Assembly (NCBI RefSeq): GCF_036971445.1
Contig: NC_091473.1
Span: 227,478,001-227,538,761, forward strand
Source: Narcine bancroftii
Lineage: Eukaryota
Direction: 5' to 3'
DNA length: 60,761 bases
The position numbers and the translations under genes are program-made. Below are positions 16,276 through 60,315 of this stretch, in pieces. The notes beneath the pieces are model-generated. The model had not been told where the DNA came from. It worked only from the letters and a program-made list of their open reading frames with translations, and did not search any database. How positions within the stretch are numbered: the first letter of the stretch is position 1; every line of letters starts with the position of its first letter.

Positions 16276-16810
16276 CTAGGCAGGTTGTAGAATTTCATTT
16301 AGAATCCCTTCATAAGACAAGGTGCTGGTTTGTAGGTCTTCCCAGGGTACGAAGGATTCCCCCTCATTTTCGACAAAGGTGCACCAACAGTGATTGTAAT
16401 CAGGATCCTTCATGATCTTCAAATGGCAGCCAGCAGACTTCAGTAACCGCAAACCTTGCTGGATCTCAGGCTCTTCCCACATAAACAAGCGGGCCATGAA
16501 GATGGTAAGGTGGACGTTGCGGTTCTTCTTCAGATACTCTGCGATTTTGGAAGCACAGGCAGCGCAGGGGCTGGAGGACACATGCCAAACGATGGAGTAC
16601 TTCAGATTGCCTTTGCACTCCTTGAAGACCTCTGTAAAGAAGGCCTCTTCTGCATGCATGCTTGTGTGCTCGTCCTCCACGTATCCTTGCAGCTTCGGGC
16701 ATTCGGCACCTTGCTGTTCCACTGAGTAGCACAAAAACGTTTTATTCCTTCCAGAAGAATATTCAACATTTTTGAATTGGAACTTGAAGAAAAAGGGACT
16801 CATCAGCTGT
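16276..16810 (-). CDS. APOBEC2: APOBEC2, coding exon 2 (cytidine deaminase domain)
   Basis: FFFKFQFKNVEYSSGRNKTFLCY, HAEEAFF (HxE), SSSPCAAC (PCxxC) and RLFMWEEPEIQ motifs; acceptor ttttccAG at 16811-16812 in phase 2; TAG stop at 16278-16276. Confidence 0.97.
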
Positions 16811-30531: not shown

Positions 30532-30843
30532 CTTCTTTGGCCTGGCTTCGCGGATGAAGATTTATGGAGGGATATGTCCACGTCTGCTGCAGGCTCGTTG
30601 GTGACTGACAAGTCCGATGCGGGACAGGCAGGCACGGTTGCAGCGGTTGCAAGGGAAAATTGGTGGGTTGGGGTTGGGTGTTGGGTTTTTCCTCCTTTGT
30701 CTTTTGTCATAGGTCTTCTTCAAAGGAGGTGCTGCCCGCCGAACTGTGAGGTGCTGAGATGCACGGTTGGAAGCGATATCAGCCCACTGGCGGTGGTCAA
30801 TGTGGCAGGCACCAAGAGATTTCTTTAAGCAGTCCTTGTATCT
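30532..30843 (-). mobile_element. RTE-clade LINE 3' end nested in Gypsy
   Basis: RYKDCLKKSL..FPCNRCNRACLSRIGLVSHQRAC; close match to 59461-59800. Confidence 0.88.
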
Positions 30844-31143
30844 CAACCACCATTAACCATTACATACACGGACACCCTACCCTGACCCATGCGCCTGATG
30901 CTCCGATCACCACGGCCAACCCCCAGCAGCCTGCCTCGACCCCCACCCCCTGCTGCACCTGTCCCTCCCCAGTCATTGGGTACACCCACTGCCAACCTGC
31001 CCCAAATTGACCAGGAACTGGCAGTGGCACCGCAGCCAGCACCACACGGTCCCTGAGACACAGAAGACCACCAGACCATCTGAACTTGTAATGGACACTA
31101 AACCCACTCCACCCTGCCGGACTTTGTTAAAAAGAGGGGTGAA

Positions 31144-37156: not shown

Positions 37157-39670
37157 GGGGGGGCGTGGCAAGATGGCGTAGGGAACAGACGTGCCTTCCA
37201 GACCTCTCCTGTCTCTGATTTATTGTTTTGTCTTTAAGTGCCTGTTAAAGTTCTTTTAAAAGTTTATAAATAATAAGAGGTGTTGGATTAGTGCTTAATG
37301 GTTTATATGCAAAAAAAAAGGTAAAAGAAAACATCAACAGACTGTTAAAAAACTATATTTTCCGAAATTGTCTGAGCCTACTTGTTTACAAGAAGCCAGG
37401 ACTCAACGAAGAATGGATCCAGAGGAAGACGTACAGAGTTCGGCATTGAAACTCCGTTTTAAGCCGGTGAGGCTCTTTGAAGGTCGTATTCAACAGCTTT
37501 CAGACCAAAGAGCTGGAGGGGTGCCAGTATTTCACACAACGGCTACTGTGAGTGCTGTTACTCAGACTTTGACAGTTCAATCAGCTGGGGCGCCACCAGC
37601 TGGAGAGTTAAAGAGCTGTCATTCGACTGCTACAGTGGTGGCGCTGCAAAATGCATCTTCAATTACAATGGTTTTTCCAGACATCGATTCAGTGAAGATG
37701 ATTAAAGAGATTTGGCTTAAAGATAACTCTGATCTTCAGTCTCCTGGCATTGCTGGGGGGACTTTGAGAGGGATTTTTATATGAAATCAAACTTCTAGAA
37801 AAGATACTAAATTAAGGGAAGGGACAGAAGATCCTGTGGTCTCTAAGGAACAGCAAGACCCCATTATGCCTGAATCTACTTCTGTTGAAATGTCTGTTAA
37901 GGATCTTGAAGATAAGATATATTCTGTATCGAGTCACTTAGCTAATTTTGTGAACCTGTTTATTTCCAAGATTAATGCGATGGCGGAAGTCATTAATGGA
38001 GCTTTTAAGCTTGAAACCATTGAAAGATTTGAAATGTGTGATCAAGGTTTAGTCGATGCACAGGATCAACTGCAAGATGAAAATAGAATAATTGAAACAT
38101 TGCAGATCCAAGATAAAAATTTAGCAAAAAAGGTTCATGATTTGGAGAATCAATCTAGACGGAACAACGTGAAAATTGTTGGTTTGCCAGAAGGCATAGA
38201 AGGACCAGATCCAAGAAAATTTTTTACTGAATGGATTCCACGAGTGTTAGGACAGGATAAATTCCCTGAAGGTTTAATACTGGAATGTGCTTATAGAGTT
38301 TTAAGAAGAAAATCTTTTTCAGGACAGAATCCAAGATCTGTTTTGATCCGTTGTTTAAACAATTGTGACAGAGAGACAATTTTACGTACGGCTATTAGAA
38401 ATGCTCAGCAAAATAGATCTCCTTTGATGGTTCAGAATAATCCTGTTTTCTTCTATCAAGATTTGAGTCAAGAAATTATGCTTCAATGACGCGAATTTAA
38501 TTCTGTGAAAGAACGGTTGTGGATAAAAAGACATAAGGCAACATTCAGGTATTCTGCGGTACTGAAGATTTTTTAGGATGGAAATTAGCCAAAGTTCTTT
38601 GACAATCCTAGAGAGGTTATGGACTTTGCTCAGTCTCTACCAATCATGCAGTTTCAGGAACGATGTAGTCCTTTAAGGTCTCCAAAGAGAGTAGAGATAT
38701 AAGGTGGGATCCAGATTTTTAAAAGAAATGGAAGCAATGGTGACCGAAGTGGTAATGTTGATTTAAAAAAATAAATCTTTTATCTTTTTTTTTGAGATAG
38801 TTTAAATAATGATGATAGTTTAATGAAATGGGAGTTGGGAGAGGGAACTGGGTGGGCACTAGTTTCCAGAAGTCATCAGCTACCTGTGAGTTATCTCACA
38901 CCCAATATTTTGGGGGAGTTACTGCTTTGGGCGGTTTAAACAGGAGGAGGTAGTTGTGACCTCCGACCTGTTTTTTTTTTCTTTTTAATTTTTGGGTTAA
39001 GAAGTGAAGGTTTTTTTTATTATTTTTTTAAAATAAATATTTTTTTTTATTTTTAACTCTTTTTGTTTTCTGGTTGTAATTGAGAGGGAATTAGGAGGTT
39101 TTTTTTCTCTCCTTTTTTTTCTTTTTTTTGGGGGGGTTTCTCTTTTTTCTTTCTTTTTTAAGAGGATGATGTCACAGAAGATAATAAGTCAAAAATTGAG
39201 GATGTTGAATTAGATGAAGAGGAAGATGAGGGGAAAGGTGATAAGAAGAAAAAGAAGAAAATTAAGTACAAATACATTGAGGGAGAAGAGTTTAATAAAA
39301 TTAAGTTAATTTCGATAGAGAATTTTGAAGATGTTATAAATGAAGAATATGGAGAATTTTATAAGAGTTTGAACTTTTTTTTCTTTTTTTATATAAGGGG
39401 AGGGGAAGGGAATAAAAAGTTTATCTGATTGTTTTTCTAAGGGATGTTTTTGTTCTCTCGATGAATTATAAAGGAAACTTGGTATTAATGGAAATTCTGT
39501 ATTTATGTATTATTAATTATGATTTTTTGTATAACAGATATGTGGTTGATATATGATTTTAATCTTTGAACTTAGTTTTAAAGTGGATTTCATTTGTTAA
39601 ATACATGTATAATGTTTGATTTAAATATATGTTTAAGGGTATTATTTTAGTATTGATTTTTTTTTGTGCC
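37157..39670 (+). mobile_element. L1-clade element with disrupted ORF1 and no recognisable ORF2 (HAL1-like)
   Basis: 5' end GGGGGGGCGTGGCAAGATGGCG; ORF1p motifs DLENQSRRNNVKIVGLPEGIEG, FFYQDLS and FRYSAVLKI; ORF1 spans ~37298-38774 with one A-run slip and 5 in-frame stops; 3' boundary approximate. Confidence 0.85.
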
Positions 39671-40514
39671 TTAGGTGATTGTGAAATTATTTCACCAATG
39701 TTAGTTCTTCACGTGTACTTTTCATAATGCATGGCCTACAACCAATTCACTCAACGCAATGAAAAGGTTGAAGAACAACATGACAATCACTTTACTCTAA
39801 CCAACAATACTGAGTGAAATCCAAGGTGGAATGAAGCAAAGATGTGGTTTTTTATTTTACAGCAAATCAGTCACAAAAACATTTCGTGGAAATAGCCCCC
39901 TCCTATGACATAATGTGTGCACTGCAAGGGGATCACAGTTCACAACAATTCCACATTTAACCTATTACAGATCATCGTCAGTCCAGCTTCCCCAAATTGT
40001 CCCACCCACACTCATTCCATTGTATTTGTCCCACATCCCTCTAAACTCATCCTAACCATGGATTTGTCCAATTTTATTCTTAGATATTGCAACGGTACCT
40101 GCTTCAACCACCTTCTCCTTCTTCGCCCGTCGTCTCTCCACTCCCTGTCTCCTTTCGCGCAGACATGATAAATTCTCCCTAGTCCCTTATCACATCCAAT
40201 GAACACCTTCTATTGGTCTGGATTCCTTCCCCATTGTTTGAATTCTGAGACTTTCTGATCTATCCTGCTTCCGCCTTTTCTGATTTTTTTCCTTGAGGAA
40301 GGGTCAGGCCTGAGATGCCGGCACTGTATCTTTGTCTTCTATAGATGCTGAAAAGACCAACTGAGTTCCTCCAGCATTTTGGTGTGTTTACTCCAATCAC
40401 AGCGTCTGCAGCCTATAGTGTTTTGCTCACCGAGAGGCTGTTCCATACCCTCACTACCCTCAGTGTAAAAAGGTTATCCTCAGGTTCCTGTCAAGTCTTT
40501 TGCCCCTCACTTAG

Positions 40515-59099: not shown

Positions 59100-60315
59100 A
59101 TACAGAACATTACAGCAGTGTACATGCCCTTTAGTCCATCATGTTATGCCAATCAACCCCCCAAACCCCAAAACATCTAAACTATTCCTACCTCATAATC
59201 CTCCATTTTTCTTTCGTCCATGGGCCTGTCTCTCTTAAAAGCCCCTATCGTTCCAGCCTTCACCACCACCCCTGGCAATGCATTCCAGGCACCCACAACT
59301 CTGTATAAAAAGACAGTCTTCCCTAAATTTTCCCCCCTTCACTTTGTACAGATATCCTCTGGTGTTTGCTGCTCCCACCCTAGGATCAAGGTGTTGGCTG
59401 TCTACTTATCTATGCCTCTCATAATCTTGCAGACCCCTATTTAGTCACCTCTTATCCTATTTCTTCTTCTTTCTTTCTTTGGCTTGGCTTCGCGGACGAA
59501 GATTTATGGAGGGGGTAAAAAGTCCACGTCAGCTGCAGGCTCATTTGTGGCTGACAAGTCCGATGCGGGACAGGCAGACACGATTGCAGCGGTTGCAAGG
59601 GAAAATTTGTTGGTTGGGGTTGGGTGTTGGGTTTTTCCTCCTTTGCCTTTTGTCAGTGAGGTGGGCTCTGCAGTCTTCTTCAAAGGAGGTTGCTGCCCGC
59701 CAAACTGTGAGGCGCCAAGATGCACGGTTTGAGGCGTTATCAGCCCACTGGCGGTGGTCAATGTGGCAGGCACCAAGAGATTTCTTTAGGCAGTCCTTGT
59801 ACCTTTTCTTTGGTGTACCTCTGTCACGGTGGCCAGTGGAGAGCTCGCCATATAACACGATCTTGGGAAGGCGATGGTCCTCCATTCTGGAGACGTGACC
59901 CATCCAGCGCAGCTGGATCTTCAGCAGCGTGGACTCGATGCTGTCGACCTCTGCCATCTCGAGTACTTCGACGTTAGGGGTATAAGCGCTCCAATGGATG
60001 TTGAGGATGGAGCGGAGACAACGCTGGTGGAAGCATTCTAGGAGCCGTAGGTGGTGCCGGTAGAGGACCCATGATTCGGAGCCGAACAGGAGTGTGGGTA
60101 TGACAACGGCTCTGTATACGCTTATCTTATCCTATACTCCAAAAAGAAAAGCCCTTGTTCTGCTAATCCTATCTCACAAGACACATTTCCCAATCCAGGC
60201 AACATCCTGGTAAATCTCCACTACACCTTCCCCATAGCTTCTGCATCCTTCCTGTAATGAGGTGACCAGAATGGAACACAATATTCTAACTGTGGTCTCA
60301 CCAGAGATTTATAGA
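59100..60315 (-). mobile_element. Decayed CR1 3' fragment split by an RTE insertion
   Basis: CR1-like sequence on both sides of the RTE TSD. Confidence 0.7.
59461..60124 (-). mobile_element. Young 5'-truncated RTE-clade LINE
   Basis: Long open frame ..QLRWMGHVSRMEDHRLPKIVLYGEL..CNRCNRVCLSRIGLVSH; (AAG/AAAG)n tail; 11-bp TSD TCTTATCCTAT (59450-59460 / 60125-60135). Confidence 0.92.

Follow-up and report, generated by a model that had tools for sequence, protein, structure and literature searches.

The window, by which we mean the whole 60,761-nucleotide stretch analysed here (Narcine bancroftii, NCBI RefSeq assembly GCF_036971445.1, contig NC_091473.1, positions 227,478,001 to 227,538,761, forward strand), carries one copy of a multicopy non-LTR retrotransposon with the following features:

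37157..39667, + strand: ORF1-only (half-L1-like) non-LTR retrotransposon copy, without its last ~0.25 kb (AATAAA and poly-A)
37157..37297, + strand: 5' UTR, starting GGGGG-CGTGGCAAGATGGCG
37298..38702, + strand: L1-type ORF1, inactivated in this copy by five in-frame stops and by a 9-A run that puts the ATG at 37298 out of frame
37298..37566, + strand: clustered A>G region gained by the source lineage, ADAR-like; 19 of 22 clade-restricted A>G fall within 300 nt (p 2e-4)
37782..37784, + strand: TGA from CGA by CpG decay, at the level of the copy; CGA in 22 of the 29 nearest copies
38487..38489, + strand: TGA from CGA by CpG decay, recurrent; CGA in 20 and TGA in 8 of the 29 nearest copies
38574..38588, + strand: pair of TAG stops, each derived from CAG at a TpC and already present in the subfamily source (29 of the 29 nearest copies)
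38700..38702, + strand: TAA, fixed in all main-lineage copies sampled (29 of 29); CAA in the older copy L333
38795..38905, + strand: segment after ORF1 predicted to pair with the 5' end through many G.U pairs (a prediction only), present also in family B
39160..39370, + strand: 211-nt piece of a host HSP90 exon, ungapped and sense-oriented, running from the charged linker into the middle domain
39371..39667, + strand: remainder of the T-rich, C-poor 3' UTR (4.7% C, 18.2% G)

Ten long loci sharing a common end defined a family unit (family A) of ~2.8 kb, consisting of the 5' UTR, ORF1, a T-rich 3' UTR, AATAAA and poly-A; ORF2 was absent from the unit in these loci, and ORF2-bearing L1s exist in the same genome. 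A search with a 701-nt query retrieved at least 2,429 candidate copies; scoring covered 40 of them, and the matches listed were 98% identical over the query. Matches resembling target-site duplications (TSDs) flanked 11 of 14 copies inspected; ten of these were 15-18 bp long and the other was 10 bp. The hallmarks of target-primed reverse transcription, namely TSD, poly-A and many copies, are thus present and indicate that the element moved as a unit. The element is an ORF1-only L1 derivative, HAL1-like; the preliminary description's term 'L1-type element' is right in that an L1-type ORF1p is encoded, but this is not a full L1. The window copy itself breaks off inside a T-run (39640-39700) without poly-A. 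One other copy, L057, is a mosaic whose 5' A>G block is that of the youngest group and whose CAG..CAG is that of the older group, which suggests recombination or template switching between subfamilies.

Elsewhere in the window, CR1-like pieces are numerous, and RTE 3' pieces lie at 59475-60128 and 30533-30844 (96% and 89% identical to the family majority, respectively). An intact APOBEC2 deaminase exon of 164 codons is found on the minus strand at 16297-16788, ~20 kb away from the retrotransposon; it matches PF18772 at E 1.3e-57, and its best matches in PDB are APOBEC2 of mouse and human. It was the single APOBEC_N match among 11 candidates scored genome-wide, a search that may miss genes with short exons. 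A link between this exon and the element was considered and rejected, as we found no evidence for one. A regional strand effect was likewise rejected: neighbouring RTE and L1 pieces of the window gave C>T versus G>A of 3/144 versus 9/215, 4/69 versus 4/113 and 2/11 versus 5/69.

ORF1 matched human LINE-1 ORF1p (E 7.6e-5, residues 9-203 of 220) and the PF02994 cluster of the Atlas (score 0.93), with no match in a Pfam hmmscan. The length of its A-run among 43 matched loci was 8 in 18, 9 in 16, 7 in 6 and 10 in 3. The preliminary description had placed five stops in one frame, derived each from CGA, CAG or CAA by a single C>T step, and read the motif changes ERAHR to ECAYR and YPA to YSA in the same way. 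The stops were confirmed from the sequence at their positions, and the ancestral codons, which had only been deduced, were observed in relatives. Besides the CGA codons listed above, CAG..CAG at 38574/38586 gave 221 exact genomic matches (0 for a reversed-pattern control), C being present at both sites also in L073, L333 and family B. L333, an older copy that is 87.6% identical, has CAA at 38700, CAT at 38292 and CCC at 38553, and in family B, which is more distant, the codon at 38700 is GAA. At 38286, where the window copy reads TGT, 24 of the 29 nearest copies read CGT. Since these nearest copies mostly retain CGA or CGT, TGA37782, TGA38487 and TGT38286 are attributable to CpG decay. TAG38574, TAG38586, TAA38700, TCT38553 and TAT38292 occur in 27-29 of the 29 (TCT38553 in 29, TAT38292 in 27) and are therefore inherited rather than private.

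We polarised changes across a set of 90 copies, which is not a random sample: 40 came from the first search and included the window copy, 30 were the first of the 221 pattern matches and 20 came from the L073 search. L073 served as the outgroup and family B (~72% identical) as a far outgroup. Changes were counted once per site, with repeat origins undercounted, and seven rows with at least 76 carriers, which reflect the root position of partial copies, were dropped from the strict counts. Before these rows were dropped, clade-restricted sites comprised 24 C>T (of 268 C) and 7 G>A (of 485 G), together with 23 A>G and 6 T>C (761 sites each). The strict, L073-confirmed inherited changes were 18 C>T and 5 G>A (p 3.6e-5), and 17 A>G and 6 T>C (p 0.035). 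Polarisation by family B gave 12 C>T and 4 G>A (p 0.002), and 16 A>G and 9 T>C, the latter difference not being significant (p 0.23); a midpoint rule gave 19 inherited C>T and 5 G>A. Singletons, on the other hand, were symmetric (C>T 0.360%, G>A 0.362% in the 90 copies), as was CpG decay (73 and 70 in the first 30 copies). The C>T/G>A ratio of all non-clade minor alleles was 1.33 (1.23 at CpG), and the context-matched C>T excess of family A after its source was 1.30 (1.09-1.55); carriers of recurrent C>T in family A were no more related on the tree than expected by chance.

The skew accompanies the succession of subfamilies. Between the CAG group (42 copies) and the window subfamily (17 copies) lie 13 C>T, 1 G>A, 4 A>G, 3 T>C and 3 transversions. 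The innermost stop-bearing group is also the youngest, with a divergence of 0.95% compared with 1.32% in the CAG group (p 3e-6), which supports the direction of change. That this group is the youngest and kept multiplying argues against the LINE restriction that had been proposed for the element.

The C>T skew is therefore real, and it is a property of the source lineage of the family, not of the window copy. The claim of a sense-strand C>T excess outside CpG was borne out, both at clade-restricted sites and in the HSP90 piece described below. Deamination of cDNA reads as G>A on the sense strand; a G>A excess of this kind was absent, and the excess found was the opposite. Hypermutation of the window copy, in contrast, did not hold. 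This copy, which had been picked for the trait, was the most skewed of 88, with 13 private C>T and 2 G>A (p 0.003 taken alone), but 7 of the 13 are at CpG and skew was not significantly heterogeneous among the 88 copies (p 0.22). Copy-specific hypermutation was rejected on the further grounds that three of the five stops are inherited and two are CpG. Edit clusters private to single copies were absent among the 88, and C>T showed no clustering along the element (p 0.31). Nor did the suggested TpC context stand, as TC was found at 14 of 28 changed and 90 of 248 unchanged C (p 0.22); with the same low power, no preference was detected for WRC (7/28 versus 66/248) or CC (2/28 versus 46/248).

Editing by ADAR leaves clustered A>G on the sense strand and prefers a 5' A or U neighbour. 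Only 12 fixed changes, 9 A>G and 3 C>T, separate the 19 copies of the innermost group from the 5 of its sister group, and all 9 A>G fall within 140 nt (37427-37566). A was ancestral at most alignable A>G sites, as judged by both L073 and family B, and a 5' A/U neighbour was present at 12 of 19 A>G sites versus 30 of 74. The burst has the strand and the clustering expected of ADAR and can be called ADAR-like. No hairpin was predicted under the A>G sites (z -0.48), where 10 of 21 edited and 53 of 91 unedited A were predicted to be paired; no duplex partner in cis was found for the region, and none of the 88 copies had a private A>G burst in the 5' region, in columns outside the shared ones. The element's first 90 nt (37159-37250) are themselves predicted to form a duplex with 38795-38905, at -68.6 to -76 kcal/mol (pairing noted for the window copy, L052 and L087). 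Shuffled heads averaged -56 to -60 kcal/mol, and the best shuffle equalled the real duplex in family A, such that the predicted pairing stands clearly above shuffles in family B and marginally in family A.

The part of the element that had been described as almost C-free offers an observed ancestor. The counts reported for it (4 C in 39181-39360 and 20 G in the first 60 nt of that stretch) were reproduced, and the translation of 39162-39377 proved to be a segment of HSP90 (PF00183, E 1.6e-8; human HSP90, E 2e-14). Aligned with the host exon in L322, the piece was identical at 173 of 211 positions, with no gaps. It differed by C>T at 20 of 23 C and by G>A at 4 of 50 G (Fisher p 3.5e-11), the remaining differences being A>G at 9 of 103, T>C at 1 of 35 and four transversions. 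The host piece contains no CpG, and all 20 of its altered C had become T, none of them A or G. Non-synonymous C>T was found at 11 of 13 and G>A at 3 of 37 positions, and the host residues at these positions are, at most sites, the same in the paralogue L321 and in the human HSP90 chain, which places the change in the element and not in the host gene. The piece falls inside a single exon and was presumably captured from mRNA.

The number of C>T changes in the HSP90 piece climbs stepwise from 13 in L331 to 18 in L073, 19 in L052 and 20 in the window copy, in keeping with the suggestion that the effect is compounded over rounds of retrotransposition along the active lineage. The preliminary description had also named a stably C-poor consensus as grounds for refuting its reading: the consensus is indeed C-poor, but not stably so, as C is still being lost along these steps. 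After correction for repeat hits, the piece had received ~2.0 changes per C compared with 0.08 per G, with transversions at 0.02 per site, so that C>T has been raised rather than G>A suppressed. The genome also contains short retrocopies derived from the 3' portion of this host gene (L325, L326, L328, L329 and L334-L338, 89-99% identical), several of them ending near one place. Nine HSP90 retrocopies that have undergone one round had C>T at 6 of 330 and G>A at 15 of 351 sites, which caps the C>T effect per round.

Family B is a sister ORF1-only family with a 2.9-kb unit and an intact ORF1 of 466 codons (L081-L100 and L241-L280). It lacks the HSP90 piece, and a six-frame Pfam search of its 3' UTR revealed no captured gene. 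In 58 of 60 loci, the inherited changes with at least three carriers were 7 C>T and 3 G>A (p 0.04), and those with at least two carriers 9 and 6 (p 0.06); there was no A>G excess and no C>T excess after the source (ratio 1.00, 0.82-1.21). Two further comparisons, both in coding sequence, involved few inherited events and had low power. RTE copies (n = 27), which the preliminary description had named as a suitable control, showed no significant C>T skew (C>T 8/712, G>A 3/494, A>G 5, T>C 7), nor did 28 copies of an A-rich, ORF2-bearing L1 (C>T 5/233, G>A 6/318, A>G 1, T>C 7); the corresponding C>T/G>A ratios of 1.85 and 1.14 were both non-significant. At four-fold sites, T and C numbered 81 and 20 in family B, 13 and 20 in the L1, and 76 and 196 in RTE. 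RTE and the A-rich L1 likewise have an RNA stage in this germline and yet are not T-rich at these sites, which calls for an element-specific factor. CR1-like copies, being only 76-85% alike, were too old to serve as a matched control, and a T-rich L1 group with copies 68-90% alike was used for composition only. One ORF2-bearing L1 copy (L340:400-5200) is C-poor throughout its ~4.8 kb (9-14% C per 400 nt), so that the C-poor trait may extend to an autonomous clade; this copy also contains a G-rich tandem repeat inside ORF2.

The sense strand of such an element is presumably single-stranded only as RNA, or as non-template DNA during transcription. From the pattern of changes, the likeliest of the explanations, though in itself an evenly balanced proposition, is that deamination of the element RNA before reverse transcription, repeated over many rounds, drives the sense-strand C>T. 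Under this proposal, element RNA would be deaminated C>U at no more than a few tenths of a percent per C per round, and a reverse transcriptase borrowed from an intact L1 would fix the change in DNA. The agent would act without motif or clustering and, given the lack of a motif, may or may not be enzymatic: either a C-to-U enzyme of low activity or simple hydrolysis of RNA kept in a long-lived RNP. The clustered 5' A>G would be ADAR editing fixed by the same reverse-transcription route, and copies with a truncated ORF1 did keep multiplying, presumably on ORF1p supplied in trans, the outcome being erosion and not restriction. An RNA phase is favoured by the A>G burst, by the lack of transversions at C and by the family A excess of 1.30, which is the size expected if ~0.3% per C were added in each round. 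Excision of uracil leaves transversions, and the conversion of host C in the HSP90 piece to T alone gives no sign of it. The proposal is weakened by the post-source ratio of 1.00 in family B, although the inherited changes there lean the same way (7 and 3), by the cap that the HSP90 retrocopies set on the effect per round, by the lack of an APOBEC motif, by RTE and the A-rich L1 not sharing the trait, and by the lack of a private A>G burst, the lack of a hairpin and the non-significance of A>G when polarised by family B alone. A wider version, in which ADAR and an uncharacterised motif-free C-to-U enzyme edit the germline RNA of this L1 clade, reverse transcription writes the edits into the genome, and RNA editing is the main heritable change and sets the T-rich composition of fish-type L1s, seems to us doubtful.

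In the main rival explanation, deamination acted on DNA instead, with the exposed non-template strand of heavily transcribed germline source copies gaining C>T, either spontaneously or as an off-target effect of AID/APOBEC, while silent daughter copies remain symmetric. This would directly explain why inherited changes are skewed and private ones symmetric, including the ratio of 1.00 in family B, and there are precedents for it: C>T exceeds G>A along whole transcripts in the introns of bony fish, where A>G/T>C is below one (PMC2927911), and C>T marks the non-transcribed strand of vertebrate histone genes, at a variant density 1.72- to 6.49-fold higher (10.64898/2026.06.11.731563). Family B and these precedents keep the explanation alive. 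The rise it requires, however, is ~6- to 25-fold; RTE and A-rich L1 sources are also transcribed and show no significant skew; the HSP90 piece has no C>G or C>A; and both the 9 A>G on a single step and the family A excess go unexplained. We regard it as somewhat unlikely.

Error by the reverse transcriptase of a driver L1 clade is less likely still. Here, G:T wobble in second-strand synthesis, repeated over thousands of rounds, would produce sense-strand C>T and A>G. The changes are indeed motif-free, diffuse, limited to transitions and element-specific, and the C-poor ORF2-bearing copy and the T-rich L1 group make a clade-specific enzyme conceivable. Such error cannot give the A>G burst, though, and it depends on a putative driver L1; wobble in the first strand would yield G>A and T>C instead, and ordinary error rates would probably demand very many rounds.

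Selection on RNA structure or composition predicts both skews, since a stem survives C>U or A>G by forming G.U pairs but is disrupted by G>A or U>C; alternatively, U-rich RNA may be favoured. The G.U-rich pairing predicted for the 5' end in families A and B would fit, and selection on the base composition of non-LTR elements has been argued (PMC7140322). Purifying selection can lower G>A, but it cannot lift C>T to the ~2 hits per C (transversions: 0.02 per site) reached in the HSP90 piece, which is purine-rich and was captured recently, and this piece largely refutes selection as the sole cause; many of the changes, moreover, are damaging, three of them creating stops. This makes selection very improbable as the explanation. 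Least credible of all is that a TpC-preferring, LINE-restricting deaminase hypermutated the window copy: its pair of TAG stops, like two further adjacent pairs, is at TpC or closely spaced, and its skew of 13 to 2 is the largest, but the inherited and CpG origins of its stops refute the idea for the stops, and heterogeneity, TpC enrichment, C>T clustering and the age of the stop-bearing subfamily all speak against it.

There is no settled answer to why LINE families sharing a genome differ in base composition, a matter on which the published work available to us leans to selection on the basis of singletons only. With singletons symmetric, inherited changes skewed and a captured piece whose ancestor can be observed, a mutational cause that acts only in active sources becomes measurable. 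If RNA is the target, its edits are entering germline DNA permanently, and editing screens that take sense-strand C>T as their negative control would, in some lineages, be treating a genuine signal as background. If the reading that combines both kinds of RNA editing were true, C>T in captured gene pieces would serve as a counter of retrotransposition rounds.

Among known systems, the closest in kind is mammalian HAL1 (half-L1), described as a non-autonomous L1 derivative that encodes ORF1p only and has many full-length copies, TSD and poly-A (PMC5753468). The present element is likewise a non-autonomous L1 derivative encoding only ORF1p. It differs in being non-mammalian and likely of independent origin, in carrying a captured HSP90 piece and in having multiplied on after the truncation of ORF1; strand-specific erosion is not mentioned for HAL1 in the available part of that source. 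The base composition of non-LTR families is known to differ within one genome, with fish L1 being T-rich in ORF2, spacer and 3' UTR (PMC7140322, PMC5381506). As far as the available parts of these studies go, they rely on singletons and an argument for selection, whereas here the inherited changes and the captured piece show a mutational source.

APOBEC-edited LINE cDNA (PMC3880073, PMC9099904) also shows strand-specific change of the deamination type in a vertebrate LINE. In lizard L1, such editing appears as sense-strand G>A clusters in ~0.26% of copies, C>T clusters having been taken as the negative control (PMC3880073); the change described here is instead sense-strand C>T that is diffuse, inherited by the lineage and motif-free. 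With transcription-associated asymmetry the element shares a C>T excess on the non-template strand and a coding strand rich in G+T, but its effect is larger (~6- to 25-fold), is not seen in silent copies and is accompanied by a local A>G burst. With ADAR A-to-I hyper-editing of repeat RNA it shares clustered sense-strand A>G leaning to a 5' A or U neighbour; in the element, however, they have become fixed genomic differences by which subfamilies are told apart, and no duplex partner was found in cis. Searches of the openly accessible literature retrieved no inherited sense-strand C>T and no fixed ADAR-type bursts in a LINE lineage. The half-L1-like element is thus of a known kind, and what is new is the motif-free loss of sense-strand C at the level of a lineage, measured against an observed ancestor and accompanied by ADAR-like bursts.
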